Source: a bacterium
GTDB taxonomy: Bacteria > Patescibacteriota > Minisyncoccia > Phycocordibacterales > UBA2100
Length of the DNA stretch: 46,555 bases
Assembly: GCA_038128225.1 (NCBI GenBank)
Contig: JAYPJF010000003.1
Span: 1-46,555, forward strand
Direction of reading: 5' to 3'
The translations under genes were made by a program, and so were the position numbers. Under the pieces are notes generated by a model. The model had not been told where the DNA came from. It saw nothing but the letters and a program-made list of their open reading frames with translations, and did no database searches. How positions within the stretch are numbered: position 1 is the stretch's first letter; the number at the start of each line of letters is the position of its first letter. This document shows, piece after piece, positions 1,654 through 46,240 of this stretch.

Positions 1654-2195
1654 CGCGATACAGCCTCCTCGCTTTTTTGATTCTTGTGGTGATCGTTCCT
1701 GCACTTGCGGTTGCCGTGGTGCTTTCAGGAAATGTACAGATGCAACAGACGCTTTCGATCACGGGTTCTATTTCCAAAGGGAGCGGTACTTTTGTGATCG
1801 ATCATCCACTCGATCCCAAAAACAAACTCCTCTATCACTCATTTGTCGAGTCGCCTGATGTAAAAAATATCTATGACGGTATAGCGCGGCTTGATACAAA
1901 TGGCGAAGTCTCTGTTACGCTCCCTGAGTACTTTAAGGCGCTCAACAAGGAATATCGATACCAATTATTTGCTCTCTACGAACCAATGCCTGACTTGTAT
2001 GTTAAAAAAGAAGTGGAACAAAATGTCTTCATTATCGGCGGAGGGGAGCCCAATGGAATGGTGAGCTGGCAAGTAACCGGAATCCGTAATGATCCGTATA
2101 TCCAAGCGAACCCGATTGTCGTTGAGGTACCAAAAGGCCCGGGAGAATTAGTGAGAAAGGGACAGTACCTTATTCCTGAAGCATACGAAAATTAA
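1644..2195 (+). CDS. Membrane-anchored/exported 'DHPLDP' domain protein (paralogue 2)
   Basis: N-terminal TM segment followed by the same domain as 1057..1653; overlaps the upstream stop by 10 nt. Confidence 0.75.
   Translation: MQLTRYSLLAFLILVVIVPALAVAVVLSGNVQMQQTLSITGSISKGSGTFVIDHPLDPKNKLLYHSFVESPDVKNIYDGIARLDTNGEVSVTLPEYFKALNKEYRYQLFALYEPMPDLYVKKEVEQNVFIIGGGEPNGMVSWQVTGIRNDPYIQANPIVVEVPKGPGELVRKGQYLIPEAYEN
1771..1880 (+). repeat. 110-bp perfect direct repeat, copy 2
   Basis: Identical to 1211-1320 (offset 560 bp). Confidence 0.95.
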
Positions 2196-3541
2196 GGTGT
2201 TGTGACGTAGGCGCCGAACTCGATGAATGTTTTAAGAAGCGTAGGCGGCGCTTGTTCGAGAGTTGCGCTCATATCGTGCGTCTCGCGCGGGTCTTTCGCA
2301 GTATTGTATAACCCAATACCGTCAGGGTCGCTCGTTTTAACTTGCGGCGCGTACGGATTGCTGACACCATTCGAATAAAATAACTTCCAGTCCCCAGACT
2401 TAACCCCATACGAATCTGGTTCAATGAGAGCTCGTGGTGAGCCCGAAGCGCCAAGTTCATCGAGCGTTGTTTGGAAACGCCCTCCTTTTCCAATTTCTGC
2501 TGCGTAATACGGCATGCCATTTACAAAATATAGCGGACCATCTGATTTATTAAATATATGAGCACCAACAAATTGCTCTGGAATTTCAATTCCGGCTAGG
2601 GCAGCGAGTGTTGGGGCAATATCAATTAAAGACACCGGTGTTGCACTCGTCTCAGGGGCCATCCCTGGGACAAAAACGAAGAGAGGTACATGCACCTCTT
2701 CTTCATGCAGTGTAAGTGCGTGGCCAAGAAGTCCGTGTTCACCGAAGGCTTCGCCGTGGTCTGAGGTTACCACGATGATGGTGCGCGTGAGGTCATCCGT
2801 AGTTAGCGAATCGAGTATGTGCGCGATGCGTTCATCCATTTGCGCTATGCCTTGATCGTATCTGAGTTTGAAGATTTCAGTAGTAGTTGCATCGTACGCA
2901 CTATTGGCTTTTTGGATATCGCTCATGGTTACGATGGGAAATTCATTTGTCTTTCCAAAATATTCGTCATAAGGGCTCTGTGGTTTGTATGGGTCATGCA
3001 CATTGAAATCATGAACGAACAAGAAATAGGGCCTTGTTTGTGTCCGCAATTCTTTAATAGCGGAGATCGCTAAATCCATGGGCGATTCAGCGCGTGTTAA
3101 TTCGCCATCACTGAATGGTCGGTAGATGGCATCAAGAATGAAAAGCAGCTCATCATCCACCAAGGCGCGAATGACGTATCCACTGCTGCGCAAAAGGCCG
3201 ATTAATTCTGGGCGATCAACACCCTCAAGGTCTTTGTAGGTGATGGCGTGCGGATACTCTGAAAACAGTGTTGAAGAAATTGATGGCAGCGTCCATGGCG
3301 CCGTTGCGTATGCGTTAGTAAAAAGTGCGCCGTGCTCTTTAAAAAATGCGGTTGTTTTTGGCATTGTGTCGCGCGTGCCACCGAACGCTTTGATGTGGGA
3401 AGCACCAAGCGTGTCCACAACTATGAAAAGCACATTGCAATTACTGCATAAAGAGGGGAGTTCAGTTTTCGAGCCTTGCAGTGCAATAAATCCAGCCAGG
3501 AGGGCTAACAGGGAGATACCGAGTAAAATCATGCTACGCAT
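2192..3541 (-). CDS. Sulfatase-like / alkaline-phosphatase-superfamily hydrolase or transferase, N-terminal membrane anchor
   Basis: NVLFIVVDTL, APWTLPS (Thr at nucleophile position), HDPY, TSDHGE, HVPL, SLIDIAPT, LYN..DPRE motifs. Confidence 0.85.
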   Translation of the reverse strand: MRSMILLGISLLALLAGFIALQGSKTELPSLCSNCNVLFIVVDTLGASHIKAFGGTRDTMPKTTAFFKEHGALFTNAYATAPWTLPSISSTLFSEYPHAITYKDLEGVDRPELIGLLRSSGYVIRALVDDELLFILDAIYRPFSDGELTRAESPMDLAISAIKELRTQTRPYFLFVHDFNVHDPYKPQSPYDEYFGKTNEFPIVTMSDIQKANSAYDATTTEIFKLRYDQGIAQMDERIAHILDSLTTDDLTRTIIVVTSDHGEAFGEHGLLGHALTLHEEEVHVPLFVFVPGMAPETSATPVSLIDIAPTLAALAGIEIPEQFVGAHIFNKSDGPLYFVNGMPYYAAEIGKGGRFQTTLDELGASGSPRALIEPDSYGVKSGDWKLFYSNGVSNPYAPQVKTSDPDGIGLYNTAKDPRETHDMSATLEQAPPTLLKTFIEFGAYVTTP

Positions 3542-3623
3542 CGTGGTTACTGTACCATTTAAAACGCTTAGACACAGGTGGAACTTTTTTAGAAGCTCTG
3601 TATCATATGCACAACAGTATGGT

Positions 3624-4454
3624 ATGGCTATCGTGAGGAGACAGTATTTAAAGCTTGTGGTGTGGGCCGCGGCTCTGGTGAGCTTTGTCGCATTTTTCTC
3701 TAGAACTCAAGCTATTACCGATCAGGAGTGGCAGGCGTACATCGTAACTAACAAAGATGAGATGAAAGATTCGAGACTCGCTTCGTATCGTCAGTCCACG
3801 TACTATCGTCAAAGCACGTACTATCGTCAAAGCACGTACTATCGTCAAAGCACGTACTACAGTCAAGGCACGTACTACAGTCAAAGCTACTATCAATCTT
3901 CATACCAAACGACGTTTACTGATGCAGTGAGCGTACAGGGGAATCTTAGTGTTACAGGAAGCATCTCCAAAGGGTCGGGTTCGTTTGTGATCGATCACCC
4001 CTTAGATCCAAAAAACAAACTCCTCTACCACTCGTTTGTTGAGTCGCCTGATGTGAAAAATATATACGATGGCATTACTACGCTTGACGCTAAAGGCGAG
4101 ACAGAGGTCAAACTCCCCTCGTATTTTGCGGCGTTGAATAAAGATGCGAGATACCAAGTGCGCGGTGTCGGCGTGTCGCAACCGAACTTGCATGTGGCGC
4201 GCGGTGTTGAAAACAACCGTTTTGTTATTGCAGGTGGAGTCCCCCACGCGAAAGTGTCCTGGCAAGTGACGGGGATACGGCATGATCCATATATTCTCAA
4301 AAATCCGATTGTTGTTGAAAAGGAAAAGAGTGATGGCGAACCTGTGGCGCAAGGCAGTTTTCTTTTCCCCCAGTATCCTTCTACACGATACCCGCTCCCC
4401 TCAGACACGATTCTGGCATGGGTGAAGAATCTTTTTACAATTGAAAAAAAATAG
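3624..4454 (+). CDS. Exported 'DHPLDP' domain protein with YYRQST hexapeptide repeats (paralogue 3)
   Basis: Start re-assigned to ATG 3624 (MAIVRRQ..., signal peptide ending TQA) because the 3240 start overlaps the sulfatase gene; Tyr/Ser/Thr/Gln repeats precede the DHPLDP domain. Confidence 0.75.
   Translation: MAIVRRQYLKLVVWAAALVSFVAFFSRTQAITDQEWQAYIVTNKDEMKDSRLASYRQSTYYRQSTYYRQSTYYRQSTYYSQGTYYSQSYYQSSYQTTFTDAVSVQGNLSVTGSISKGSGSFVIDHPLDPKNKLLYHSFVESPDVKNIYDGITTLDAKGETEVKLPSYFAALNKDARYQVRGVGVSQPNLHVARGVENNRFVIAGGVPHAKVSWQVTGIRHDPYILKNPIVVEKEKSDGEPVAQGSFLFPQYPSTRYPLPSDTILAWVKNLFTIEKK
3786..3893 (+). repeat. 18-bp in-frame tandem repeat, about 6 units
   Basis: tatcgtcaaagcacgtac x3 exact (3804-3857) plus degenerate flanking units; encodes (YRQSTY)4-YSQGTY-YSQSYY. 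Confidence 0.95.
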
Positions 4455-4468
4455 GGCACTGTGTAGGC

Positions 4469-5674
4469 ATGATAGTCTTTCGCGAGCAGATCGCATGGGT
4501 GCTTGGTGCATTCATTTTGGTTGCGATGATCGCATCGGTATGGTGGTTCGGCTTTGGATTTGGACCTCGATACAGTGAGGCGGAAACGATCGCGAAGGGC
4601 GTGCGGACATTTGATGAATTGTCGGAGAGGTTTCGCGTTTTGGCACAGGACAAAGGTGCTCGCTATGCGTTTGAGGTACTCGGGAGTGCGCCACTTCCAC
4701 CGAATACGGATATTCATCTTTTGGGACATGTAGTAGGCGATGAGCTCTACGCACAAGAAGGAGTGGGCGGTATTGCCTTCTGTACACAAGATTTTCGCAA
4801 CGCATGCTCGCACTCGATTGTGATTGGTGCACTTGGGGAATTTGGAGAAACTGCACTCCCCTCTATTCGAGAGGCGTGTGTCCGCGCTCCTGGCGGCCCC
4901 GGCGCGTATACGATGTGTTATCACGGTTTAGGACACGGTGTTTTTGCATATTTTAGCTATTCAATGCCGGAAACAGTCGCGTTTTGTGAAAAGACAGGAA
5001 CCGATGCCTATAACAATCGCGAGGCTATCGAGTGCATAGGCGGCATGATTATGGAGTTGATGGGTGGCGGTGGGCACGATCGGGACGCGTGGCAAAAAGC
5101 GCGCGAACGATACCTCGCCTCCTCAGACCCACTTCGCGTGTGTATGGACGACGCAATCCCATATGAAGCAAAGAGCACCTGTCTTGCTTACCTCACACCT
5201 TTCTTGTGGGAGCGCGCAGGTATTGATATCGGAAATCCTAATCCGGAAACTTTCCCTGCGGCATTCAAGTTTTGCGACCAGGTGCCTGCACGCGAACCCG
5301 AACTTCGCGCCGCGTGTTTCGGCGGCTTTGGAAAAGAATTTGTGCCACTGGTTGGTGCTCGTGATGTGCGCGCGCTTAGCTCCTACGCTGATGAACAATT
5401 TAAGACCATATATACCTGGTGTTCGTCTGCGGGGCACACTGAAGGGATTGCCGCCTGTATCACTGACGCTCTCGCATCTTTTTTCTGGGGAGGGGAAAAT
5501 GATCCTGCTGTTTCGTTCGGGTTTTGTAGCACGGTCGCGCAGCAGGATGAGCATGGTGGCGATTCATGTTTTGCCGCGCTCGCGGACAACATCGTGTCAT
5601 ACATTACTGGGGATGCACAGCGAGATTTATGTGCTCGGTTGCCTGAAAAATATCAAGCTATATGCACACAGTAG
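4469..5674 (+). CDS. Membrane-anchored His/Cys-rich helical protein (paralogue A)
   Basis: N-terminal TM; HLLGH, ACSH, CYHGLGHG, CIGGMIME; many paired Cys. Confidence 0.75.
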   Translation: MIVFREQIAWVLGAFILVAMIASVWWFGFGFGPRYSEAETIAKGVRTFDELSERFRVLAQDKGARYAFEVLGSAPLPPNTDIHLLGHVVGDELYAQEGVGGIAFCTQDFRNACSHSIVIGALGEFGETALPSIREACVRAPGGPGAYTMCYHGLGHGVFAYFSYSMPETVAFCEKTGTDAYNNREAIECIGGMIMELMGGGGHDRDAWQKARERYLASSDPLRVCMDDAIPYEAKSTCLAYLTPFLWERAGIDIGNPNPETFPAAFKFCDQVPAREPELRAACFGGFGKEFVPLVGARDVRALSSYADEQFKTIYTWCSSAGHTEGIAACITDALASFFWGGENDPAVSFGFCSTVAQQDEHGGDSCFAALADNIVSYITGDAQRDLCARLPEKYQAICTQ

Positions 5675-6552
5675 TTTTCTTGCTCACGCTCATTTTTCCT
5701 GGGGTACTTTTTGCGGTTGAATCTGCAGTGCCTGATTGGGAGATGCTCATCGAACAACAAGGGGCAGAAAAGGCGTATGTACAATTAGGCATTTTCACCG
5801 CTCACGATGATACCAACGAGCAACATGATGAAGCGCACCGTTTTGGAGGCGCTCTGTATACGCGCGCTGGGTTAGAGGGCTTCTCCGTGTGTGACGAACA
5901 GTTTTCGTACGGATGTTTTCACGAGTTTATTGGTCGTGCGATTGCCCAGCACGGACCGTCGGTTGTCGCTTCTCTTAATGAAAGATGTCTTCAAACGCCA
6001 GACTTTTTAAAATGTCAGCACGGGGTTGGACACGGGCTCATCTCTTGGGCAGGCTATGAGGAAAAAAATCTCATGCAGGCGCTTGAGCAGTGCGCGACAC
6101 TCGAACGTTCTGATCCGATCGGCGGCTGTCCGGGCGGCGTGTTTATGGAATACGATTTACGCACCATGCTTGGCGCGGAAGGAGAAGTCAGGCCCGGATC
6201 TCGGGGCGATCTTGCCGATGTGTGCGCCCGGGTGCCAAACGCATTCAAAAACGCGTGCGCATACTGGAGGCCGCAATGGTGGCACGAGTTATTTTTTGAC
6301 GGTAGCCGCACGCCCGCCACATATCGTACGCTGGGGTCACTATGTGATGCATTTGAAAAAGAAAGGGGTAACTATCGTGCCTGTATTGAAGGGTTTGTGA
6401 CGACATTCCCGCACTTCATGAGCGACCCGCGCACCGACACACCATTATGTTCCGTTATACCAAGATCATCGGGTGGGCGTACGGCATGTGTTACTCAGAT
6501 ATTTCGTAATTCTACTGCAGGATCGCAGTGTCGCTTGGCGAACTCAGAATAG
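5662..6552 (+). CDS. Exported His/Cys-rich helical protein (paralogue B)
   Basis: Signal peptide; HDEAH, GCFH, CQHGVGHG, CPGGVFME. Confidence 0.75.
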   Translation: MHTVVFLLTLIFPGVLFAVESAVPDWEMLIEQQGAEKAYVQLGIFTAHDDTNEQHDEAHRFGGALYTRAGLEGFSVCDEQFSYGCFHEFIGRAIAQHGPSVVASLNERCLQTPDFLKCQHGVGHGLISWAGYEEKNLMQALEQCATLERSDPIGGCPGGVFMEYDLRTMLGAEGEVRPGSRGDLADVCARVPNAFKNACAYWRPQWWHELFFDGSRTPATYRTLGSLCDAFEKERGNYRACIEGFVTTFPHFMSDPRTDTPLCSVIPRSSGGRTACVTQIFRNSTAGSQCRLANSE

Positions 6553-6976
6553 TCATTCGTACTATTTCAATAACACCGTCAGCGTTGTAGATAATAGTTG
6601 CGAGAACGCGGTCACCAGGGGTTACCGCATCAAGCGTAATTCCTGTTTTGTTTGAAAAGCCCACGAGCGTATTTCCTTCGATTCGTGGCGTCAGTTTAAA
6701 GATGTGAACTTGAGAACCAATATGTGCACGAAGATACTGGGGTGTGATTAGCTTAACGTCTTGGGCAAAAATCTCCAGCACCATTGTTCTTTGGTCTAGG
6801 TCTGTACTTACTACCGTCGCCTCACGATGTACGGGACCGTGATCAGTGAGTGCTTCGCTAAGCTCCGATAGTTGCGTGTATTGTTTACTGAATACCACAA
6901 GCACGAACCCGAATGTTGTGGTCAGTATCGCGATGTATACAAGAGCTATGAGGTATGCACGGCTAGGCGGGATCAT
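6512..6976 (-). CDS. Membrane-anchored hypothetical protein, OB-fold-like beta domain
   Basis: TM segment then ATVVSTD...MVLE...VTPGDRVLA. Start ATG 6976 chosen because it overlaps the upstream stop (alternative 7009). Confidence 0.55.
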   Translation of the reverse strand: MIPPSRAYLIALVYIAILTTTFGFVLVVFSKQYTQLSELSEALTDHGPVHREATVVSTDLDQRTMVLEIFAQDVKLITPQYLRAHIGSQVHIFKLTPRIEGNTLVGFSNKTGITLDAVTPGDRVLATIIYNADGVIEIVRMTILSSPSDTAILQ

Positions 6977-7358
6977 AAAAAGAAATATTTTTTGCTTTAA
7001 GACCTCCATGCGCCGTTAATATAGAGTCAACTTCGATGATTACACCAGGTGGTATGGCATAGGGAGGTTTGATGTCTAAGGATTGTGAGTTGGTGCGAAC
7101 TCCATTGTCTGCATTGGCATATCGAAGAACAAACCACTGAGTGGATTGATCGGTTTCTATACGCACACGCGTTGTTTTTTGCATAGAGTGTGCTGTTTCA
7201 AGTACGATTAAATTTCCGGTGTGCGAGACAACAGCTCCTGTGTAGCGGGGAATTCGTGGAGACTCAGAAGCTGCGAGATGTGTTGGAAGTGCGTACCAGC
7301 CATGACCAAGTAATAGTCCCGCGATCGTTCCTAAGACACCTACGTACACGCCAATCAT
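6963..7358 (-). CDS. Membrane-anchored hypothetical protein, OB-fold-like beta domain
   Basis: TM segment then GAVVSHTGNLIVLE...PGVIIEV. Start ATG 7358 lies 6 nt after a minus-strand TACAAT. Confidence 0.55.
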   Translation of the reverse strand: MIGVYVGVLGTIAGLLLGHGWYALPTHLAASESPRIPRYTGAVVSHTGNLIVLETAHSMQKTTRVRIETDQSTQWFVLRYANADNGVRTNSQSLDIKPPYAIPPGVIIEVDSILTAHGGLKAKNISFYDPA

Positions 7359-7364
7359 GAGCAT

Positions 7365-7374
7365 ATTGTACACT
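7365..7374. promoter_or_regulatory. Overlapping back-to-back -10 boxes (candidate bidirectional leaderless promoter)
   Basis: ATTGTACACT gives TACAAT on minus (7365-7370, 6 nt before ATG 7358) and TACACT on plus (7369-7374, 7 nt before ATG 7382). Confidence 0.55.
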
Positions 7375-7381
7375 AGCCTAT

Positions 7382-9226
7382 ATGGAGAGTGGCCGTCTGT
7401 ATTTTGAAAAAATGGCTTTTGCTTTGAGTACACTACTTATCAGTACGCTCGCTATTTCACCCCTCCTCTCTTTTTTTACTGGTGCGCCAATCATGACTCT
7501 TTTTTTTAGTATGGCCCTGCTTGGTCTTGTGCTACTCATGGTGGCAAATAGAGCGCATATGGCGCCCGCCTTGTCGATACATTTTTATGTCGCACTTGGG
7601 ATCTTAATCGGGTTGATTGTGTGGTGGTCGGTGCAGTATTCATGGGTGTTTGCGTTGTTTGGCGATAGTTTCTCCATAGACGGCGGAGCAGCACTACTGA
7701 TGTGTTTGGGATTTTTTATTGTGGCGCATATAGGAAAACCTACAGTCGCATTGCGAGCGGGCGCACAAGGCCTCCTCACAGGATGCGCGCTTTTAGCGGC
7801 AGGCACTGCACTGGTTCTGTTTTTCGGGGAAGATGCATCATATACGCTATCGCACGTATTTATTATCAGTGTGGGCGGAATGATTTCTTCCATACTATTA
7901 ATCGGACTCGGCGGAACAATACGCATGCTAAGTATAATTTGCCTCGGCAGTACCGTACTGTTTGCAGCGCTGTCACAGGAAGAAATCGTGCTTGGAGCAG
8001 TTGTTGTATCGCTCATTACCGCGTTATCACTTGATGCTGTATGGGCGCGAGCTCACCGTGCGGAGCGTCGGGTGTCGTCCTTTGTAAACAGTATTGCGGC
8101 ACTGGCACTCGTCGTGTGTGCAGGAAGTTTCTTTATCGGTGGTCAGCACGATGCGCGTATTTCCGATATGCGTCCTTCGTTGATTTCATCACTCCAAACG
8201 CTTTCGAGTGAAAGCAATCAGAATCCCGCCGTTCTCTTTTTGGGAGCTGGCCCCACAGCGTTTACTCGGCTTTGGGATTACAATCGCGTGGGTGCGGCGA
8301 ACGCTGTGGAGCAGTGGAACTCTGAAGTGCCTGTAGGTTTTAACAATTTCGTAACACTCACGGCCACCATTGGACTTCCGTTGGTCATCGGTATTCTTCT
8401 TGCTGGCGCACTTTTGATTGCGACACCGCTCTCTTTTTTGATAACACGCACAGCTATACCACGTGAGCATTTTTTTTATGCGCTCTGCTTTCTTTTTACA
8501 GGCGTATATATGTACGCGTCTATGTTTGTATACGCATTCGATTTTTATGTCGTTGCGCTTGCGAGTTTGATTATAGGGTTTGCGGCGCGCTTTCAGACAC
8601 AAAAAGGTTTTCAGCATGTATATCAGCGGGCAATCGTGGGAGGCATCGCCATGCTATTTCTTTCCTTTGGGGCACTCGGTGTGTATACGACTGTTTTGCA
8701 CGAGAAAGGAGTGAACCTGATCAGCGAAAACCCGCACAATACCGGGCGCGCGATCAGCGTACTCTACGCTGCGCATCGCGCGCTTCCCCTTCCAATATTT
8801 TCTCGCACGATAGCCGCCTCACATGAAAAGAACGCTGATGCGCTGATGCATGACTCATTTATAGATCCGGAGAACGGCAAGAAACAGGCGCTCACCGAAC
8901 TTGATTTAGCTATCTCGTATGCAAATGAAGCGGTTAAGTATGGCCCTGTATCGCATCAAAATTATATTGCAGTTGCGCACGCAACGTTACTGAGCGCATT
9001 ATTGAGTGGGGACACAAGCGCTTTTGATGAGGCGGTGATTTATTACCAGTACGCACGTGCATACGCGAAGCGACACCCGTTTCCAGCGTTTTTGGAAGGG
9101 CAGGCACACTTTCTCGCGGGGGATATGCACACAGCAGAAGAAGTACTTATCGAAGCGATTCGGTTGCGACCACAGTATACTGAGGCGCAGGCGCTCCTCA
9201 AAAAAGCTCAGGCACAAGCTCCATGA
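7382..9226 (+). CDS. Polytopic membrane protein, O-antigen-ligase (Wzy_C)-like, with C-terminal TPR-like repeats
   Basis: Many TM helices; loop LFLGAGPTAF...WN...GFNN..TLTATIGL; C-terminal AIRLRPQYTEAQ TPR-type helices. Confidence 0.65.
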   Translation: MESGRLYFEKMAFALSTLLISTLAISPLLSFFTGAPIMTLFFSMALLGLVLLMVANRAHMAPALSIHFYVALGILIGLIVWWSVQYSWVFALFGDSFSIDGGAALLMCLGFFIVAHIGKPTVALRAGAQGLLTGCALLAAGTALVLFFGEDASYTLSHVFIISVGGMISSILLIGLGGTIRMLSIICLGSTVLFAALSQEEIVLGAVVVSLITALSLDAVWARAHRAERRVSSFVNSIAALALVVCAGSFFIGGQHDARISDMRPSLISSLQTLSSESNQNPAVLFLGAGPTAFTRLWDYNRVGAANAVEQWNSEVPVGFNNFVTLTATIGLPLVIGILLAGALLIATPLSFLITRTAIPREHFFYALCFLFTGVYMYASMFVYAFDFYVVALASLIIGFAARFQTQKGFQHVYQRAIVGGIAMLFLSFGALGVYTTVLHEKGVNLISENPHNTGRAISVLYAAHRALPLPIFSRTIAASHEKNADALMHDSFIDPENGKKQALTELDLAISYANEAVKYGPVSHQNYIAVAHATLLSALLSGDTSAFDEAVIYYQYARAYAKRHPFPAFLEGQAHFLAGDMHTAEEVLIEAIRLRPQYTEAQALLKKAQAQAP

Positions 9227-9253
9227 CGTGTCGTGGTCGTGTACAATACCACC

Positions 9254-10327
9254 ATGTCGTTCATACGCTTCTTGTCATACCACAACGCGATACCTGTCGG
9301 GTTTTCTTTACTCGTTCTTTCGTTTGGGTCGGCATTTGCGGCAAGCGAAGAAGTCCGAGATTCGGTTTTTTCGCAAGAGCAAATCGTGGTTTCGGTAGAC
9401 AATACATACATAGCCACGAAAGACTTATCACAGTACACGCCGCGGGTATCGATAGTGCAGGTGACTGAAGACGAAAGCTCCTACTACGTATCGTATGATC
9501 TGATGACTATCGATCTTACCGATTATGTGTGGCAAGATGTGACAAAAAAATCCCAGATGCGCGTTGACAAGGCGCTACTAGGGAACTCGGTTGATTTGGG
9601 TGTGTATGTTACCGAGCAGCTTGCGCAGATCATTGACCATGAGATCGTATATCTCAGAGAAGTGCAGGAAATTGAAAAAAGACAGGTCTCGCAAAAAGCT
9701 ATCGCAACCGAATATGGGGGTCTTGTAGGAAAGTTTCTCGACAATACGACCGAGGTACTCCCCGGGTATACTCCAGTCATCGTTGCGCCTGTTGCGCTTG
9801 ATACAACACAAGTTGCGTCGGCAGCAGCGTCTACACAAACGCAAGGCCAGACTGGTAGCGTATCCTCAGGCGATTCAAACGACTCCGAACCACCAACTAT
9901 TCAGATTCTCGGTAATACTCCCGCGCGCGTTCCGCTTGGAGCCTCATACGCAGATTTGGGTGTTGCTGTTACCGACAATCGAGATTTAAATCCAAGGGTG
10001 ACAGTATTTGTTGATGGAAAAGAAGTTTCGTATGTTTCTCTTGATACCGCAAGTGTGAAGGACTGGGTTATTCGTTATGAGGTGACCGACCAAGCGGGAA
10101 ACATGGCATACATCGAGCGAATCGTTGAAGTATTTGATCCGAATCCGCGTATAGAACCTGCAGACAATGCCGCAGGAACAAGTACCGAGTCGACCGAAGT
10201 TACTGAAACGGAAATTCCTGTAAACGAAGCCTCCGCTCTTGCGACGTCGACTCCGGAGGCGACGCCACTTGTTGTACCTGAAAACACCGAAGCCGCCACA
10301 ACGCAAGGCACTAGTACGCCAGAATAG
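9254..10327 (+). CDS. Exported protein with DUF5011/Ig-like domain and acidic Thr-rich tail
   Basis: Signal ending AFA; PPTIQILG..P..V..G..YADLG...TDNRD...YEVTDQAGN; TACAAT 6 nt before ATG 9254. Confidence 0.75.
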   Translation: MSFIRFLSYHNAIPVGFSLLVLSFGSAFAASEEVRDSVFSQEQIVVSVDNTYIATKDLSQYTPRVSIVQVTEDESSYYVSYDLMTIDLTDYVWQDVTKKSQMRVDKALLGNSVDLGVYVTEQLAQIIDHEIVYLREVQEIEKRQVSQKAIATEYGGLVGKFLDNTTEVLPGYTPVIVAPVALDTTQVASAAASTQTQGQTGSVSSGDSNDSEPPTIQILGNTPARVPLGASYADLGVAVTDNRDLNPRVTVFVDGKEVSYVSLDTASVKDWVIRYEVTDQAGNMAYIERIVEVFDPNPRIEPADNAAGTSTESTEVTETEIPVNEASALATSTPEATPLVVPENTEAATTQGTSTPE

Positions 10328-10344
10328 CATGAGTATACTGAGGC

Positions 10345-11373
10345 GTGCCTCGAATAATTTACATAGCCATCGCGGGTGCACTGCTGGCTGGTTTTGCTGT
10401 GTACGCATATACGCCTGAAGTAAAAGTGCCTCTACCGCACGAAGATCCAGGTGCATTTCGCGCATATTGGGAAAAAGAGACAGAAAGAATAGGATTTAAA
10501 GTCGCGTTTGAACGACTCAAAAAAGAATACCAGACTGAAACGCCTAGCGATCAGCATTTTGCCGTGCATATTTTTGGTGAAATTATTTACGAGCGTTTTG
10601 GTATTAATGGAATCAATCAGTGTGATCCCGTGTACGGGTTTGGGTGTCACCATGGATTTCTTGCGCGTATTGTGGCGGAAGAAGGAGTTTCAGTAATACG
10701 GAAGCTCGATGATGCTTGTATACAGGTTTTTGGCTCACCACTTGCAACGGGTTGCCAGCATGGCATTGGGCATGGCGCGCTCGACCTTGCCCAATGGGAC
10801 GTACTCCGAGCGCTCGAGTTATGCTCAAACACGACGGAGATCGTACCAATTTTGGGGTGCATGTCAGGTGTATTTATGGAGTACTTCAATCCACAAAATA
10901 CGGGGATACCGGGTGTTAACGCACCGGAATCTCCGCCGTTTGACCAAAATCAGCCGTTCGACATTTGTTTGACCATGAGTGAAAAACACCGACGTTCTTG
11001 TTATTTTGAAATGCCGGTGTGGTGGTTGGGGCGTACAGAGCATGATTTTCTTGCTGCAGGATCATTGTGCGAACGTGCGCCAGACGATGTGGCAAAAGAG
11101 TACTGCTACCTGGGATTTGGCAACATCGCAGGGCCGATGAAAAACTTTTTGAAGGAAGACTCGCTTGCAATTTGTGATCAAATGCCGTCCCGTGATGGAC
11201 GTGTGTTATGCACCGCAGGAGTGTATTGGAGCTTCATTGCTGATGAAAAATACGCGCAAGACGCTGATGGTATTTGCGAACGTCTTCAGGGTGATGATGT
11301 GACAATCTGCAAACAGAAAGGAAACATCACGTGCTCGTATGAAGGGACGTGCGACCGGAATTACAATTTGTAG
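10345..11373 (+). CDS. Membrane-anchored His/Cys-rich helical protein (paralogue C)
   Basis: HFAVH, GCHHG, CQHGIGHG, CMSGVFME; TATACT 5 nt before GTG. Confidence 0.75.
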   Translation: MPRIIYIAIAGALLAGFAVYAYTPEVKVPLPHEDPGAFRAYWEKETERIGFKVAFERLKKEYQTETPSDQHFAVHIFGEIIYERFGINGINQCDPVYGFGCHHGFLARIVAEEGVSVIRKLDDACIQVFGSPLATGCQHGIGHGALDLAQWDVLRALELCSNTTEIVPILGCMSGVFMEYFNPQNTGIPGVNAPESPPFDQNQPFDICLTMSEKHRRSCYFEMPVWWLGRTEHDFLAAGSLCERAPDDVAKEYCYLGFGNIAGPMKNFLKEDSLAICDQMPSRDGRVLCTAGVYWSFIADEKYAQDADGICERLQGDDVTICKQKGNITCSYEGTCDRNYNL

Positions 11374-11375
11374 GT

Positions 11376-12629
11376 ATGATTACTCCTGCGACGACACGAA
11401 CAACACTGTTTCTGTGTGCCGCGGCGCTCGTGTTCATTAGTCCTGTTTTTTTGTATCAGTATGCGGGACAAGTACGAGACATGTACAACGCGTATCAAAC
11501 GGGGCACACACTACAGGAGCTTGCACAGAAAGCCGTTGCGCAATGTTCTGGTGAAGTATACAAACCTGCGTGTTACGACGAAGTGCTCCCCGCATTCATG
11601 GATACAGGGCTTTCCATGGAAGATGCGTTTCGTGTGACTCGCTATGTGCAGCAACTTGATCCTTCGTATTGGTATTGTCATGTGCTCGGCCATCGCCTCA
11701 GCGAACGAGAGACGGCAAAAGATCCTCAGCAATGGGTGGGTGTTATCGGCCGTTGTCCGTCAGGAGTGTGCTCAAACGGCTGTATACACGGCGCGTTTCA
11801 GGAACGGTTTAGAAAAAGTGAAATGACGCCCGAAGAGGCGTATGCGCTTATCCCTGAATTACAGCACGTATGCGAAAGCAGCGCGACAAAAACCTTTACC
11901 GGACTGGAACAAGGCAGTTGCTACCATGCGTTAGGTCACCTCACGATGTATATGACAGGAGCAGACGTATCACACGCGCTCAGGATGTGTGAGGAACTTG
12001 CGTACAAGGATGATGGGCGCGATTTTCGACGATTATGCTATGACGGTCTTTTTATGCAGATATATCAGCCGCTTGAACCAGAGGATTTTGGATTAGTGGC
12101 GAATATTGCACCTAAAACACAGATGGCAGCAAAAGCGTTTTGTGATACATATTCTGGCGAAGTTCGTAGTTCGTGTCGAAGCGAGTCTTGGCCATTGTTT
12201 GATGCAGAAATTCACACACCAGAAGGACTAGTGTCGTTTTGTGATAAAGAAACAAACGTGGATTCGCGGCGCACATGTTATTCGGGCCTTATGTATGTGA
12301 TCACGCCAAGTTTTGATTTTGACGCCCGCAAAGTTGCGGCATTTTGTGAGGCGCTTCCGGAGCGTGTGCAAGGGTTGTGTTTTGGAAACGCAGCGTCGCG
12401 TACCATCGAAACAGACTATGTTCTTGCCGATAAAGCGGTTGCCATCTGCGAAAGCGCTGGTGACATGAGGGAGCGGTGTTTTGAAGAATTACTATTCTAC
12501 TCGAACTACAATTTTCATCGAGATTCACTCGAGCAACAAACATTTTGCTACGCGCTCCCGATTCCGTGGGCAGTGCGGTGTGGTGAGAAAGAGGGTGAAC
12601 AGACACTGCATCCGCAAGATGCTGTATAA
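11376..12629 (+). CDS. Membrane-anchored His/Cys-rich helical protein (paralogue D)
   Basis: CHVLGH, GCIHG, CYHALGH, CYDGLFMQ; ATG 11376 just after the upstream stop. Confidence 0.75.
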   Translation: MITPATTRTTLFLCAAALVFISPVFLYQYAGQVRDMYNAYQTGHTLQELAQKAVAQCSGEVYKPACYDEVLPAFMDTGLSMEDAFRVTRYVQQLDPSYWYCHVLGHRLSERETAKDPQQWVGVIGRCPSGVCSNGCIHGAFQERFRKSEMTPEEAYALIPELQHVCESSATKTFTGLEQGSCYHALGHLTMYMTGADVSHALRMCEELAYKDDGRDFRRLCYDGLFMQIYQPLEPEDFGLVANIAPKTQMAAKAFCDTYSGEVRSSCRSESWPLFDAEIHTPEGLVSFCDKETNVDSRRTCYSGLMYVITPSFDFDARKVAAFCEALPERVQGLCFGNAASRTIETDYVLADKAVAICESAGDMRERCFEELLFYSNYNFHRDSLEQQTFCYALPIPWAVRCGEKEGEQTLHPQDAV

Positions 12630-12656: not shown

Positions 12657-13016
12657 ATGCGATGGATGTATGGGGTTGTGGCGGTAAGTATAGTGGCCGC
12701 GGGGTTTGTTTTTTTTCTACGTGCGCCAACTTCTCCTCAACAGACGGTTATTATTACCCTAACAGGCTCTGGGTATGAGCCGGCAGAAGTTTTAATTGCG
12801 CAAGGAACACAAGTTATATTTAGAACTACTGAGCCGCGCATGTTTTGGCCGGCTTCAAACCTCCACCCATCACATGGGATCTATCCAGAGTTTGATCCTA
12901 AACGACCACTCGAACCATCAGAAACCTGGGCATTTGTTTTTGATACTGTAGGGGAGTGGCGTTTCCATGACCACCTTGCTCCGTATTACACAGGAACTAT
13001 TACCGTAACTAAGTAA
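12657..13016 (+). CDS. Cupredoxin/plastocyanin-fold protein with atypical ligands
   Basis: G(Y)EPAEVLIAQGTQVIF, FVFDTVGEWRFHDHL...TGTITV cupredoxin strand pattern; no Cys in the sequence. Confidence 0.75.
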   Translation: MRWMYGVVAVSIVAAGFVFFLRAPTSPQQTVIITLTGSGYEPAEVLIAQGTQVIFRTTEPRMFWPASNLHPSHGIYPEFDPKRPLEPSETWAFVFDTVGEWRFHDHLAPYYTGTITVTK

Positions 13017-13018
13017 TC

Positions 13019-13525
13019 ATGACCTGTAAACAAACATTTCTGTTTTTTATCTGCGCAACTTTGATCCCGTTGAGTGTTTCTGCGCACAGTAACACAACTT
13101 CAATTGAAGTTCCGGTGGGCGAGCGCATCGTAGATATCGGGTACAACCGTACTTTTGAGGCAGGGGTTCCGATCCTACTTGATCTTGGTATAAAAAATGC
13201 AGACCAAACTACAATACCGTTTACCGATACCTGGGTTCGTGTGTCTCATCACGACCAAACCATGTTTTCTGCGCCGATTTTTAATGGGGCTTTGGGAGGC
13301 GCGAGAGTCACGTATGTATTTCCGCAGGCCGGAACGTATACGGCAACGGTGCGTTTTTACAACGACGGGAAAGAGATCGTTACCGCAGATGTACCTATTG
13401 ACGTTATTGCGGGAGAAACAAAGGGGCCTTTGTGGCCAATAGTGGTTGTAGGAGTTTCAATAATAAGTCTCGCGACTGGAGTAGGTATTGGATTGTTGGC
13501 ACGTAGGGCGCGCAAGAGAGCGTAG
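13019..13525 (+). CDS. Exported Ig-like (YtkA/FixH-like) protein with N-terminal His and C-terminal membrane anchor
   Basis: Signal SVSA|H; YVFPQAGTYTATVRF; C-terminal TM plus basic tail RRARKRA. Confidence 0.6.
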   Translation: MTCKQTFLFFICATLIPLSVSAHSNTTSIEVPVGERIVDIGYNRTFEAGVPILLDLGIKNADQTTIPFTDTWVRVSHHDQTMFSAPIFNGALGGARVTYVFPQAGTYTATVRFYNDGKEIVTADVPIDVIAGETKGPLWPIVVVGVSIISLATGVGIGLLARRARKRA

Positions 13526-13589
13526 TACTTTTCCCACCCAAACAAAGGAGGAGGTCTTTACTCAAAGCTCGATACGGTATACTTGGCAC

Positions 13590-14615
13590 ATGGTACGTGT
13601 CGCAATCAATGGGTTTGGAAGGATTGGGCGCGCGTTTGTTCGCACCATGTATACGCGTAAAGCGAACATGACATTGGTTGCGATTAACGATCTCGGTGAC
13701 GCGAAAACGCTCGCGTACTTGCTCAAATACGATTCAGTCTATGGGCGGGCTCCTTTTTCGGTGAACCACGAGGAGGATGCGTTGGTGATCGACGGTTTAC
13801 GAGTTCCTGTTTCGCATGAACTCGATCCGGCGAAACTTCCCTGGAAGGCGTACGCAGTTGACGTTGTGGTTGAATCGACAGGAGTGTTTACGAGTTATGA
13901 AAAAGCGAAAGCACATCTTGCTGCAGGAGCGAAACGGGTAGTCATTTCTGCCCCAGTTAAAGACGCCCCCGAAACCGCAGGGGTGCCAGGAGCAACTATT
14001 TTAATGGGAGTAAATAACGAGCGGGTCGGATCATACACAATTACATCAAACGCCTCGTGCACCACAAATGCCGCGAGCCCCCTTATTGGGATTCTTGATG
14101 AAACCGTTGGGATCGAGAAAGCGATTCTCAATACGGTGCATGCGTATACCGCGAGCCAATCAGTGGTTGATGGACCGTCCAAAAAAGAACGACGCGAAGG
14201 GCGTGCTGCAGCGCTTAATCTTGTTCCAGCGTCCACGGGTTCGGCGATTGCTGTTACGCAAGCGTACACGGCACTTCAGAATAAATTTGATGGGATTGCG
14301 GTTCGTGTTCCGGTTCCCGCAGGTTCTTTGGTTGATGTAACGTTTATTGCAAAGCGAGCCACTACGGTTGAAGAAGTTAATACAGCATTGATTCAGGCTG
14401 CGCGGAGCGATCGTTGGAAAAATATATTTGCTGTGACTGAGGAAGAGTTGGTGTCGACAGACATCGTTGGCGAACCGTATGGGTCTATTGCGCAATTGGA
14501 TATGACGCGAGTGGTCGGAGGAAATTTAGTAAAAGTACTTGCGTGGTATGACAACGAAATGGGGTACGCGCAGACGCTCGCGCAGCACGTTGCTGAAATC
14601 GGGAAAAGTCTATGA
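13590..14615 (+). CDS. gap: Type I glyceraldehyde-3-phosphate dehydrogenase
   Basis: VAINGFGRIGR, ESTG, SNASCTTN, WYDNE; start ATG 13590. Confidence 0.97.
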   Translation: MVRVAINGFGRIGRAFVRTMYTRKANMTLVAINDLGDAKTLAYLLKYDSVYGRAPFSVNHEEDALVIDGLRVPVSHELDPAKLPWKAYAVDVVVESTGVFTSYEKAKAHLAAGAKRVVISAPVKDAPETAGVPGATILMGVNNERVGSYTITSNASCTTNAASPLIGILDETVGIEKAILNTVHAYTASQSVVDGPSKKERREGRAAALNLVPASTGSAIAVTQAYTALQNKFDGIAVRVPVPAGSLVDVTFIAKRATTVEEVNTALIQAARSDRWKNIFAVTEEELVSTDIVGEPYGSIAQLDMTRVVGGNLVKVLAWYDNEMGYAQTLAQHVAEIGKSL

Positions 14616-44235: not shown

Positions 44236-44919
44236 ATGAGTCAAGGTGCATCAAATAGGGGGATGACTTTAAGCGTGGCAAGCCTCGTCTTCGTCACGTC
44301 GCTTTCTGCGTTTGGGTCAATCGGTCTCGTCCCTTGCTACATTGATCGCACCTGTGCAGAAACGAACACTGTTGTACAAGCATTACCTGACGCCTCAGGT
44401 AATCTTGCGCTCGCGTCTATTCCACGTTTGGGAGGGGTGCTGCCACCGCCTACAGGCACTCAGGAAATTGAGTACCCGCTTGAGCCGACACGCATCGTGA
44501 TCCGGTCACAGGGAATCGATCTCCAGATATTAAATCCTCACGGCACCACTATTAAAGAACTTGATGACGCGCTTCTTTCAGGAGCGGTTCGTTATCCACT
44601 CTCGGCACAGCTGAATCAAAACGGAAACATCTTCATCTTTGGGCATAGTTCACACTTGCCAATCGTAAAAAACCAGATGTTTCGTGCATTCAACAAGCTC
44701 TCCAGCCTTAAGGAAGGGGACACTATTGAATTGCATGGCGGTGGGGAAGTACATACCTATCGCGTGAACGTGGTACGCAAAACAGATGCTAGCGACGAAA
44801 CGATCGACCTTTCGGCTTCACAAGGCAAAAAACTTACACTTTCAACATGCGACTCATTTGGTGCGAAGACCTCACGATACGTGGTTGAAGCTGAATTTGT
44901 AGGGAAGAAAATACAATAA
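44236..44919 (+). CDS. Sortase
   Basis: N-terminal anchor; IFGHSS, LTLSTC, SRYVVEA (His/Cys/Arg). Confidence 0.88.
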   Translation: MSQGASNRGMTLSVASLVFVTSLSAFGSIGLVPCYIDRTCAETNTVVQALPDASGNLALASIPRLGGVLPPPTGTQEIEYPLEPTRIVIRSQGIDLQILNPHGTTIKELDDALLSGAVRYPLSAQLNQNGNIFIFGHSSHLPIVKNQMFRAFNKLSSLKEGDTIELHGGGEVHTYRVNVVRKTDASDETIDLSASQGKKLTLSTCDSFGAKTSRYVVEAEFVGKKIQ

Positions 44920-45010
44920 ACTCGAGAGCTCGAACCATTGACTTTTTAGCATTTTAGTGTAGAGTTTCTGGCGGAAGCACGTCGAAACAACAGATAGAAA
45001 GGGGGTAGCG

Positions 45011-45418
45011 ATGAGAATCGCGATCCTGTTTTGCCTGATCATCGCACCCTTTCTTACGGGGTGCTTCGATGACTGCGGGAAGGACCCGAAGTGCTATCAG
45101 GCGAGAGCGGCAGCCGAAGAGCAAGTCATTAAGGCCAAGGCGGAAGCGGAGGTGGCCAGAATTAACGCTGAGGCGGAAGCCGATGCGGCGCGCGCCACTT
45201 CTCGCTCTGGTTTCGCCCGCGAGTACGACGCCCTGCACGAGCGTATCGGCAAGCGTCGCTCGGGTTCGTGCGGTGCTAAAGTCGACCGCATGAAGAAGTG
45301 CCTTGAGGCAGCCGGCGTCCTCGACGAGTGTCAACGCGACGGCTGCAAGGTAAACTGCTCGACCGAGGTTCGAGCGGTGGCGCAGCGGTGCGCTCGGAAA
45401 GCCGGCGGCACGTGGTGA
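45011..45418 (+). CDS. Putative lipoprotein, Cys-rich with Ala/Glu helix
   Basis: Lipobox LTG|C; multiple Cys; SD-like AAGGGGG; promoter TTGACT-N16-TAGAGT at 44938. Confidence 0.6.
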   Translation: MRIAILFCLIIAPFLTGCFDDCGKDPKCYQARAAAEEQVIKAKAEAEVARINAEAEADAARATSRSGFAREYDALHERIGKRRSGSCGAKVDRMKKCLEAAGVLDECQRDGCKVNCSTEVRAVAQRCARKAGGTW

Positions 45419-45428
45419 TAGGTTGTGG

Positions 45429-45464
45429 GGAGGATGCTTCCGAGCGTTCTCCTCACCTCTTTTT
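45429..45464 (+). terminator. Hairpin with downstream T-run
   Basis: GGAGGATGCT-TCCG-AGCGTTCTCC then TCACCTCTTTTT. Confidence 0.5.
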
Positions 45465-45549
45465 TGTACGAAGATCGTATTTCTTTTTTGAAAAAGAAAT
45501 GTGACCTCTGTACAACAGAGGATGGTGAAACGCATGGAGGAGAAACACC

Positions 45550-46194
45550 ATGCACTACAAGTTCTTTGGCATACTCGGTCTCATCCTCGCGGTTCTCGGG
45601 ACTCCCGCAATCGCGGAAGACGTCACCGTGACCGTGGCTCCTACGGTGGAGGTGGAGGCTGAGTCCGCAGCTTCTGCGAAGGAGGAAGGCGAGCTCGACA
45701 TCGAGGATCCGTTCTCGGTCACGTTCGACGATAAGAGTCTCAGTGGCCCGGCTATCTGCAGTGACGTATCGAGTCCTCCCGAAATATCGGCGACGGACTC
45801 GTACATCAAGGTCCTGATTCTTCTGCCCTCAAAAGGGCTGGGTGGCGCGGCTTCCGGCACCTACAAGCTGGAAGTTCATCACGCCGCCGATCAGGCGCGC
45901 ATCGACAAGAACCGGTGGGTGCGGGGGGTGCAGGATTGTGTGTACGGCGACGACGGCCAGAAGGCAGTGCATGTCACCTGGTATCGGATCGGTGCACGAC
46001 TTCAGGGACGGTACTACGTCACCCCGATGTACCTTCCGGTCTCGGCGTTCGAGGAAAACATCGTGGTGCGAACGAGGCTGGACAAAGTCTCGGGCGCACC
46101 GCGATTCGTCGGCGAGTGGAAGGACCGGGAACGGGAAGACAAGCCTTACCGTCTCTTTCTCGCACGAGTCGAGGAGGACGGCGAGGGCGACTAA
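45550..46194 (+). CDS. Secreted hypothetical protein
   Basis: SD GGAGGAG; signal peptide ending AIA; GC-rich codons. Confidence 0.65.
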   Translation: MHYKFFGILGLILAVLGTPAIAEDVTVTVAPTVEVEAESAASAKEEGELDIEDPFSVTFDDKSLSGPAICSDVSSPPEISATDSYIKVLILLPSKGLGGAASGTYKLEVHHAADQARIDKNRWVRGVQDCVYGDDGQKAVHVTWYRIGARLQGRYYVTPMYLPVSAFEENIVVRTRLDKVSGAPRFVGEWKDREREDKPYRLFLARVEEDGEGD

Positions 46195-46211
46195 TCTTCG
46201 CGAGAAGAAAT

Positions 46212-46240
46212 GGGCGGGCTTTCGAGCCCGCCCCTTTTTT
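46212..46240 (+). terminator. Intrinsic terminator
   Basis: GGGCGGGCT-TTCG-AGCCCGCCC-CTTTTTT. Confidence 0.85.

Follow-up and report, generated by a model that had tools for sequence, protein, structure and literature searches.

A new family of Cys-paired, predicted helical proteins in a conserved patescibacterial operon, with a candidate extracytoplasmic metal site

The stretch of DNA analysed here, referred to as the window, comprises positions 1 to 46,555 of contig JAYPJF010000003.1 (GenBank assembly GCA_038128225.1), from a member of the Patescibacteriota (Minisyncoccia; Phycocordibacterales; UBA2100). It contains four paralogous genes, all transcribed rightwards and given the working names P1 to P4, whose products share a domain that we refer to as FAM (also a working name). 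The genes are arranged in two pairs (Table 1). The start of P2 overlaps the end of P1 by 13 nucleotides and P3 and P4 likewise overlap by a few bases, and P4 is followed by genes coding for a cupredoxin-like protein and an immunoglobulin-like (Ig-like) beta-sandwich protein. Comparison with related genomes supports FAM as a real, new and unnamed family. We put at about even the chance that FAM is an extracytoplasmic metal site, most likely for copper, that works together with the cupredoxin-like and Ig-like partners, as residue conservation and gene context would suggest.

An earlier reading of this DNA made from its letters alone (the sequence-only reading) had described P1 to P4 as four diverged and exported paralogs that share HxxxH, CxH, CxHxxGH and CxxGxxM[EQ] motifs, and all of these are present in the translations. 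In P1, P2, P3 and P4, respectively, the first motif reads HLLGH, HDEAH, HFAVH and HVLGH, the second CSH, CFH, CHH and CIH, the third CYHGLGH, CQHGVGH, CQHGIGH and CYHALGH, and the fourth CIGGMIME, CPGGVFME, CMSGVFME and CYDGLFMQ. The aligned proteins are 22-26% identical and have 27 invariant columns, including four His, 13 Cys, several Gly and one Met, and their likeness is far beyond chance, as seen in their scores against a family profile (A2) built from 52 sequences (Table 1). Five His are found in all four proteins, as had been proposed, but one of those in P4 is not positionally equivalent, its HxxxH being shifted by one turn. The repeated Cys pairs are likewise present, with seven shared, except that P2, in which the five His and the Met are all retained, ends earlier and has alignment gaps in place of the last pair. 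For wider comparisons we searched one genome per species, which yielded 291 relatives, and kept the best 73 loci, nearly all of them from metagenome-assembled genomes of Patescibacteria; together with the window's genome these provide 352 family open reading frames (ORFs). Each of P1 to P4 begins with a hydrophobic segment, and such a segment lies upstream of the domain in 288 of the 320 family ORFs with a complete N-terminus, in agreement with export. Residues of the FAM domain are numbered as in P3 throughout, unless a residue of another protein is named.

Table 1. Genes of the FAM locus and its surroundings, with coordinates in the window. E values for P1 to P4 are against the family profile; aa, amino acids.
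Feature	Coordinates	Strand	Description	Key residues
P1	4469-5674	+	FAM, P1-type, 401 aa, N-terminal membrane anchor; from the ORF list, profile E 1.9e-59	H83, H87, H115, H152, H156, M195; seven Cys pairs; residue pattern HH CC H CC H G H CC G M, then four further Cys pairs
P2	5662-6552	+	FAM, P2/3-type, 296 aa, signal-peptide-like N-terminus; profile E 3.7e-76	
P3	10345-11373	+	FAM, P2/3-type, 342 aa; profile E 1.1e-111	H71, H75, H103, H139, H143, M178 (invariant columns in the 52-sequence alignment)
P4	11349-12629	+	FAM, Tyr-type, 426 aa from GTG 11349 (ATG 11376 a possible alternative); profile E 2.1e-55	Y107, C110, H111, H115, H147, H193, H197, M236; extra N-terminal Cys pair C66/C75
Cupredoxin-like protein	12657-13016	+	119 aa, Cys-less, N-terminal anchor	four His
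Ig-like beta-sandwich protein	13019-13525	+	168 aa, signal peptide ..SVSA, C-terminal membrane helix and basic tail	
Accessory Tyr-rich protein	3240-4454	+	exported; tandem STYYRQ repeats, conserved C-terminal domain (..FVIDHPLDPKNKLLYHSFVESPDVKNIYDG..)	
Accessory Ig-like surface protein	9233-10327	+	between the FAM pairs; Pfam Bact_surface_Ig-like E 1.4e-7	
Polytopic membrane protein	7382-9226	+	614 aa, TPR-like C-terminus; faint Pfam/NCBIfam matches only	
Two small anchored proteins	6512-7009 and 6963-7433	-	between P2 and P3	

An AlphaFold2 model of P3 built on A2 has a mean predicted local distance difference test score (pLDDT) of 92.5 and a predicted template modelling score (pTM) of 0.88, and contains 17 helices, the first of which is the N-terminal anchor. 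FAM is predicted to be an all-helical, repeat-built alpha-solenoid of about seven helix-turn-helix repeats, each of about 34 residues and stapled by disulfides. The Cys pairs of P3 are 93-101, 125-137, 160-172, 208-219, 242-254, 277-289 and 311-322, and in each the first Cys closes one helix and the second starts the next. They recur with a period of 32-35 residues, apart from one 48-residue exception, and a recurring G-C-x-[H/S/x]-G motif follows. Mean-field covariation on 536 unique domain rows (effective number of sequences, Neff, 523) gives couplings between residues 33 to 35 positions apart (R216-A250, L106-G140, V110-A145, G142-G175 and K251-D284), which are the mark of stacked repeats. 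Both the model and these couplings point to the helical solenoid that had been proposed from the motifs.

The Cys residues behave as pairs across the family. C93 and C101 are both present in 229 family ORFs, both absent in 109 and discordant in one, and for C242 and C254 the corresponding numbers are 287, 58 and zero. Covariation ranks C93-C101 first and C242-C254 second, with C277-C289, C311-C322 and C208-C219 within the top 60; many mid-rank pairs in the same list (C101-M178, M178-C242, C101-C242) reflect subfamily structure and not contacts, and apart from the Cys pairs and the repeat register we attach little weight to the covariation. Because the Cys pairs are lost only together and give the top two covariation signals, the data argue for their being disulfides, in keeping with the Cys-stapled helices of the sequence-only reading. 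A DsbA-like gene is present in eight of 74 loci (the 73 related loci and the window). The genome's single VKOR gene (contig C1, 41937-42299, minus strand) lies about 2.5 kb from a cupredoxin-FAM fusion paralog (approximately 44759-46240, plus strand), and VKOR-FAM and DCC1-like-FAM fusions found elsewhere (P0087, P0184) keep all five His and the Cys pairs. The N-terminal hydrophobic segments, the DsbA-like neighbours and VKOR are consistent with extracytoplasmic disulfide formation.

The DsbA-like neighbours, the nearby VKOR gene and the two oxidoreductase fusions would also suit a FAM that is itself a thiol-disulfide or cofactor (heme or quinone) redox protein, by analogy to COA7, a Sel1-like protein for which excerpts of PMC8892353 report heme binding and a disulfide reductase activity. 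However, the FAM Cys form C-x8-12-C pairs that bridge helices and not CxxC motifs, their loss is strictly pairwise, which is how structural disulfides behave, and no Sel1 match is found in Pfam. The oxidoreductase fusions are rare, one of each kind among 29 long family members, and would equally fit FAM as the main client of the disulfide machinery. We regard a redox role of this kind as highly improbable.

Comparison of the P3 model with known structures places it only among generic alpha-solenoids, with no specific match, which is how the fold search that had been called for turned out. Foldseek gives nothing at E <= 0.001, the only matches being designed armadillo repeats with a template modelling (TM) score of about 0.2; a wide VIA search reaches Z 6.3 at most, the top matches being generic HEAT/PC/TOG solenoids, and in a second look with VIA generic solenoids again lead, at Z 6.1. 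The fold matches listed include no hemerythrin, tyrosinase, imelysin, Hcp or COA7, which is not proof of different folds. Kinship with hemerythrin or type-3 copper proteins, which the sequence-only reading had cited for their dinuclear sites built from helical HxxxH sets, finds no backing in Pfam or in PDB sequences either. Hemerythrin is a four-helix bundle with H, HxxxE, HxxxH and HxxxxD diiron ligands, and membership is not supported, given the missing Pfam and PDB sequence matches and the predicted 17-helix solenoid. Type-3 copper proteins such as tyrosinase and hemocyanin hold six His (3 + 3) on a four-helix bundle; FAM has no Pfam match to them and only five His, one of which is Tyr or Phe in 72 of the 352 ORFs. 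Membership of the HEAT, ARM or TPR families is likewise not supported, P1 to P4 having no such Pfam match at E <= 0.1 and the likeness being one of generic fold.

FAM is large as well as nameless. Pfam (E <= 0.1) and NCBIfam scans assign P1 to P4 to no family, and a PDB sequence search with a four-sequence profile returns no chains at E <= 10. When A2 was searched against 1.84 billion cluster representatives (50%-identity clusters), 6917 representatives matched at E <= 0.001; of these, 5366 remain when the threshold is set to E <= 1e-10 and 1937 when it is E <= 1e-30. Of the 49 relatives that P3 retrieved in a word-indexed search, all the named ones are 'hypothetical protein' of Parcubacteria, Patescibacteria or Paceibacterota, and the 30 nearest clusters in the ESM Atlas are all 'hypothetical protein' clusters of candidate phyla radiation (CPR) phyla; an ESM Atlas search restricted to named clusters gave no usable match for FAM. 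No description of the helical family was found in the open literature, subscription journals and supplements lying outside the coverage. The proposal of a candidate new family is thus well founded, and the profile search that had been suggested for it recovers thousands of relatives and no characterised family.

The window's genome, of 801,540 bases in six contigs and rated 100% complete, has eight FAM copies by family profile search, four in the window and four on another contig. FAM is found in 12 of 300 genomes of the same phylum, 18 of 200 of the same class and none of seven of the same order. The system is thus accessory and patchily distributed, and genomes that have it carry several copies.

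Typing of the FAM genes by best match among the genome's eight paralogs reveals a conserved gene order. Each of the 73 related loci has an array of one to nine FAM copies on the same strand, with up to nine genes in 13 kb, and 408 of the 414 cluster genes lie on one strand. The order is P1, P2/3, (cupredoxin-FAM), P4, cupredoxin and Ig-like protein. Its first part, from P1 through P2/3 and (cupredoxin-FAM) to P4, is seen in 30 of the 73 loci, and in 48 a P4 gene comes after P2/3; a P1-type gene is the first of the array in 47, and a P4-type gene directly precedes a cupredoxin or Ig-like gene in 31. Because this order of paralog types is conserved, we suggest that the three types hold distinct, non-redundant roles within one assembly. 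The neighbourhood analysis proposed earlier therefore yields a conserved same-strand operon with cupredoxin-like and Ig-like partners. The sequence-only reading had seen an expansion as two tandem pairs; there are indeed two pairs in the window, but this undersells a genome with eight paralogs, in which the window carries a copy of the conserved operon split by a 3.8-kb insert.

FAM is also found as part of much longer proteins. Two giant metagenome proteins, P0050 (3580 amino acids) and P0051 (2143 amino acids), have up to 12 matched FAM stretches, with six alignable FAM domains in P0050 and five in P0051; all but one in each keep the His/Met set, and the odd domain reads HRRYHY at these positions. 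The C-terminus of P0050 has a GH3 glycosidase domain and LRV/HEAT repeats. Among the 29 long family members, Pfam identifies Cupredoxin_1 in eight, VKOR in one, a DCC1-like oxidoreductase in one, GH3 with LRV/HEAT in one and FG-GAP repeats in one (P0077), with one weak unrelated match and nothing in the other 16.

FAM might be no catalyst or carrier at all but a structural surface scaffold or adhesin, a rigid disulfide-stapled block of the envelope or of structures for attachment to a host, in which the His cluster is structural (for example, for Zn) or pH-sensing. The presence of up to 12 matched stretches in a single protein, the arrays of up to nine genes, the association with Ig-like, FG-GAP and Tyr-rich repeat surface proteins, and the patchy accessory distribution (18 of 200 in the class, none of seven in the order) all fit such a role. 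However, it is rare for repeats of purely structural use to have an invariant polar cluster of five residues when identity is only about 25%, and the ordered paralog types and cupredoxin fusions suggest a working assembly and not interchangeable bricks. We consider a purely structural role quite unlikely.

Four His of FAM, part of a cluster with a further His and a Met, are close to invariant. H75 is present in 335 of the 352 ORFs, H103 in 342, H139 in 337 and H143 in 339, and all four of these core His are kept in 523 of 542 domain rows, multi-domain giants included. The cluster His lie in Gly-rich helix segments (FGCYHG, GCQHGIGHG, GCxSGVFME), and a few degenerate members lose several cluster residues at once, reading for example HEHQIS, HDHLNS or NYQHNI. 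The P4 type (56 sequences aligned) is distinct, with an invariant Tyr at position 71, His at 75 and an extra invariant His one turn further on. In P4 itself, Y107 takes the position of the first HxxxH His, H111 is the second His of P1 to P3 and H115 is additional. This type also has an invariant Cys pair of its own, C110/C141. Because all other extracytoplasmic Cys of P4 belong to the regular pairs of the family, C110 and C141 are probably bonded together, which would tie the helix of Y107, H111 and H115 to the start of the H147 helix. Within the cluster, H75 covaries with H103, H139 and H143, H139 with M178, and H71 with G140. Because the L106-G140, V110-A145 and G142-G175 couplings give the stacking register, they indirectly place H103, H139/H143 and M178 side by side at the same height on neighbouring inner helices. 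Convergence of the five His and the Met on a metal is a possibility to which register and covariation lend indirect support.

A ladder of His could also line a groove that binds or cleaves an envelope or host polymer or a small molecule (a glycan, peptidoglycan fragment, phosphate ester or lipid head group), with no metal involved and with paralogs that differ in specificity. Alpha-solenoids usually bind ligands on their concave face, FAM occurs in giant surface proteins beside GH3 (P0050) and FG-GAP repeats (P0077), Ig-like and Tyr-rich surface proteins adjoin FAM genes, the eight diverged paralogs of the genome fit diversified specificity, and neither an importer nor a client for a metal is apparent. 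A set of four to five invariant His and a Met, kept at 22-26% identity, is, however, more typical of a metal or cofactor site, whereas a specificity groove should vary between paralogs, and it would be hard to see a role for the cupredoxin-derived domain that recurs as a fusion partner (70 of 352 ORFs). We find this explanation doubtful.

The cupredoxin-like partner is related to known copper proteins and differs from them at the site itself. It scores 23.3 bits with Pfam Cupredoxin_1, under the cut-off of 27, and its fused relatives P0049 and P0165 score above that cut-off; with P0049, a 510-residue FAM member, the product shares 40% identity (E 8e-32) over the N-terminal domain of the latter. 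Homology to cupredoxins is evident in a full-length profile match to amicyanin (E 2.1e-8). The motif WPAS..HP.H....FD...HDH includes H70, H73, D80, H104, D105 and H106, and H70, H73, H104 and H106 are each found in at least 96% of 115 cupredoxin-like domains, with no conserved Cys. In the amicyanin alignment H70 takes the place of the first copper ligand and D105 that of the copper Cys; the remaining ligands, a His and a Met, fall on non-ligand residues. The type-1 ligand set of His, Cys, His and Met is thus not that of the partner. With Asp in place of the ligand Cys and without the His and Met ligands of the C-terminus, we take the partner to be a cupredoxin with a putatively remodelled His/Asp site and not a blue electron carrier. 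Literature on Patescibacteria treats single-domain cupredoxin/plastocyanin as a presumed electron donor to NirK (excerpts of PMC5581439 and PMC12931201); a 'plastocyanin/cupredoxin' annotation of this partner, which has no blue-copper Cys, should be corrected and not be read as a NirK donor.

A cupredoxin-like gene lies within 6 kb of FAM in 55 of the 73 loci. Among the 115 domains, 38 are standalone, 70 are fused N-terminally to FAM, two lie behind a protein of the same kind as the Ig-like partner and five are in other long ORFs. The cupredoxin-fused FAM type usually has Asn for M178 and is without the first disulfide. Two single ORFs (L045:8192-9223 and L055:6184-7239) combine an N-terminal-His Ig-like domain, a membrane helix and a four-His cupredoxin, a second kind of fusion that ties the two partners to one another.

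The second partner, the Ig-like protein, has a His as the first residue after the predicted signal-peptide site in 29 of 29 homologs, with a small-x-small site after the hydrophobic segment, and its invariant residues are H23, E30, D39, G41, W72 and G93. AlphaFold predicts, with a pLDDT of 91.9, a sandwich of eight strands and a membrane helix at the C-terminus. In the wide VIA search the Helicobacter pylori copper-resistance protein CrdA comes first (Z 11.7, root-mean-square deviation 2.7, 102 residues aligned), and P19/HftA/Tp34 (Z 9.1-9.5), PmoD (Z 8.4) and many unrelated Ig-like folds (Z 8-10.7) are also found. Pfam scans of 25 members at E <= 1 show no DUF1775 or CopC, but weak PKD/Ig-like matches and, in two of the 25, YtkA-like at E 0.051. 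Homologs are present in 28 of the 73 loci. Within the class the gene is found in five of 200 genomes, namely four of 18 FAM-positive genomes (all with six to eight FAM matches) versus one of 182 FAM-negative genomes. The mature N-terminal His of this protein looks like that of a histidine brace, as far as its residues tell.

These partners bring to mind ferroxidase-type iron handling, by analogy to EfeO and P19, in which the cupredoxin-like domain would oxidise Fe(II) and FAM and the Ig-like protein would hold Fe(III). A Cupredoxin_1-type domain N-terminal to an all-helical domain parallels EfeO, the Ig-like partner resembles the iron-and-copper-binding HftA, Tp34 and FtrA-P19 at the Z scores given above, and five His with the conserved E179 are reminiscent of diiron ligand sets. 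Against this, FTR1/EfeU is not found in the complete genome (PF03239, no matches, with control genomes matched), P1 to P4 have no Pfam match to M75/imelysin, and no conserved permease is present in the 73 neighbourhoods. The N-terminal His and the His/Met set also favour copper over iron, judging from excerpts of PMC8424229. Iron handling of this type appears very unlikely.

We therefore return to the reading of FAM as a metal site. Because the invariant His and Met persist in paralogs that otherwise have only a quarter of their residues in common, and lie on Gly-rich stacked helices, a metal or cofactor site is indicated. Copper is the leading candidate because the partners are a His/Asp domain of cupredoxin origin, which a fifth of the family carries as a fusion, and an N-terminal-His sandwich. 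A plausible scenario is that FAM forms a membrane-anchored extracytoplasmic solenoid, in which the inner helices of the first repeats would carry the four near-invariant His together with one further position held by His or Tyr and another held by Met or Asn. These would make up a transition-metal site, most likely for copper, or possibly two neighbouring sites (one of three His, the other of two His and the Met). The P1, P2/3 and P4 types would be non-redundant members of a surface operon, and the tasks of binding, handing on or redox-cycling the metal at the cell surface would fall to the cupredoxin-like and Ig-like proteins. The iron, non-metal groove, structural and thiol/cofactor explanations are all rated below this one.

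Several observations weigh against this reading. One of the 'ligands', H71, is present in 268 of the 352 ORFs and is replaced by Tyr in 65 and Phe in seven, and M178 is present in 254, with Asn in 52. The His covariation derives from few sequences, degenerate ones, and from subfamily structure, and may reflect ancestry and not contact. That either partner binds metal is itself something we infer from sequence. The CrdA match of the Ig-like model is just one Z unit over unrelated Ig-like folds, and the top Foldseek ranks for the same model are generic PKD and RhoGDI domains. The four-His cupredoxin is present in 86 of the 200 class genomes, in 12 of 18 that are FAM-positive versus 74 of 182 that are FAM-negative, and the link is not exclusive. 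In FAM-negative genomes (L083-L092) it forms the C-terminus of proteins of 411-615 residues with an N-terminal DUF5667, in ten of ten long ORFs examined and with no FAM; four of the ten also have a Kazal-type domain, and their motif is WPAS..HP.H..FD..H[DN]H. The four-His cupredoxin is thus a general surface module of the class that serves FAM-less proteins too.

The supply and use of copper are no clearer. Besides FTR1, a CopD permease is not found in the 100%-complete genome, and clustering of all ORFs of the 73 loci gives no conserved transporter or permease. A gene of multicopper-oxidase/NirK type is present in 24 of the 200 class genomes, in five of 18 FAM-positive versus 19 of 182 FAM-negative genomes, a weak link (Fisher p 0.047) whose strength the p value, as for the other associations of this kind, overstates, the genomes being related and not independent. 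The window's genome has one gene of this type and one HMA-domain gene. With an oxidase in only five of the 18 genomes, and neither FTR1 nor CopD, there is therefore no obvious copper client or import route.

A bolder form of the copper reading is that FAM is a new class of extracytoplasmic copper protein with two adjacent mononuclear sites (three His; two His and Met), which the cupredoxin-like partner and the Ig-like one, as a histidine-brace chaperone, would load or reduce, and in which the three paralog types would form one hetero-oligomeric machine. We offer this tentatively and think it unlikely to hold in full. If the two-site reading were true, supposedly fermentative Patescibacteria would have, at their host-contact surface, either a copper relay or an oxidative chemistry that depends on oxygen or peroxide. 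More generally, a real metal site would represent a new kind of architecture among the proteins that handle copper (or iron) chemistry outside the cytoplasm. The envelope biology and host interaction of CPR bacteria are largely unknown, and FAM may occupy more than 1% of an 800-kb genome. An invariant His/Met cluster, together with two remodelled copper-protein folds, then provides a bench-testable hypothesis of unrecognised surface metal handling in these bacteria.

Among the other genes of the locus, we note that homologs of the accessory Tyr-rich protein, for which Pfam and NCBIfam scans give no match, are located just upstream of the FAM array in 12 of the 73 loci, often as several tandem copies, and that a homolog of the accessory Ig-like surface protein is present in nine. 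No homologs of the polytopic membrane protein or of the two small minus-strand genes were seen in the 73 related loci, and these three genes therefore look like a lineage-specific insertion between P2 and P3. On the left, a gene transcribed divergently from the operon (2192-3541, minus strand) codes for a membrane-anchored sulfatase-family protein (Pfam Sulfatase E 9.4e-36), a homolog of which adjoins the FAM array in one related locus (L070). On the right, the operon is followed by a putative glyceraldehyde-3-phosphate dehydrogenase-like gene (13488-14615, plus strand, assigned by eye); homologs are present in nine of the 73 loci, and part of the flanking synteny is therefore conserved.

The components of the locus can each be compared with a known system. 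The cupredoxin-like partner is like amicyanin and plastocyanin in its full-length profile match and in keeping the first copper-ligand His, but it has Asp for Cys, is without the C-terminal His/Met, and has H73, H104 and H106 around the site. The Ig-like partner is best compared with YcnI of Bacillus subtilis, which excerpts of PMC8424229 describe as membrane-tethered and as binding Cu(II) through a monohistidine brace of N-terminal His, Glu and Trp. Relative to that description and to CopC, the Ig-like partner shares a cleavage that would expose His1, a beta-sandwich, a C-terminal anchor and an invariant Glu and Trp. It differs in that it has no DUF1775 or CopC match and there is no CopD in the genome; its Glu and Trp are compared by kind of residue.

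The arrangement of cupredoxin and helical domains recalls EfeO/EfeM. EfeO has a Cup domain and a helical M75 domain, and fused and M75-only forms coexist (excerpts of PMC9174327 and PMC3143127). As in EfeO, a cupredoxin domain without a classical blue site lies N-terminal to an all-helical extracytoplasmic domain, and FAM too occurs in fused and split forms. The helical domain of FAM is, however, unrelated, Cys-stapled and multi-paralogous, and no EfeB-like neighbour was seen in the 73 loci; with no M75 Pfam match and no PF03239 match in the genome, FAM is not a member of the EfeO/imelysin family.

The non-coupled binuclear copper monooxygenases PHM and DBM use five His and one Met, split as three His and two His plus Met. 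Those enzymes are beta-sandwiches with no homology to FAM, and the likeness is one of ligand inventory only, H71, H75 and H103 on one side and H139, H143 and M178 on the other, a grouping into two sites that is conjecture. An architectural parallel is provided by Sel1-like proteins. HcpB and HcpC of Helicobacter are exported solenoids of helix-turn-helix repeats of about 34-36 residues, each stapled by a Cys pair. Human COA7, a mitochondrial protein, is a disulfide-rich Sel1-like solenoid that reduces the disulfides of copper chaperones. Excerpts of PMC8892353 tie it to copper-site assembly. FAM finds no support as a Sel1 repeat protein in sequence, P1 to P4 having no Pfam match to it at E <= 0.1 and no PDB sequence match at E <= 10; its Cys are spaced by 8-12 residues and not seven, and its His cluster is without counterpart in these proteins. 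What FAM is predicted to share with them is an alpha-solenoid that is exported or resides in an oxidising compartment, is built of helix-turn-helix repeats and has one disulfide per repeat.

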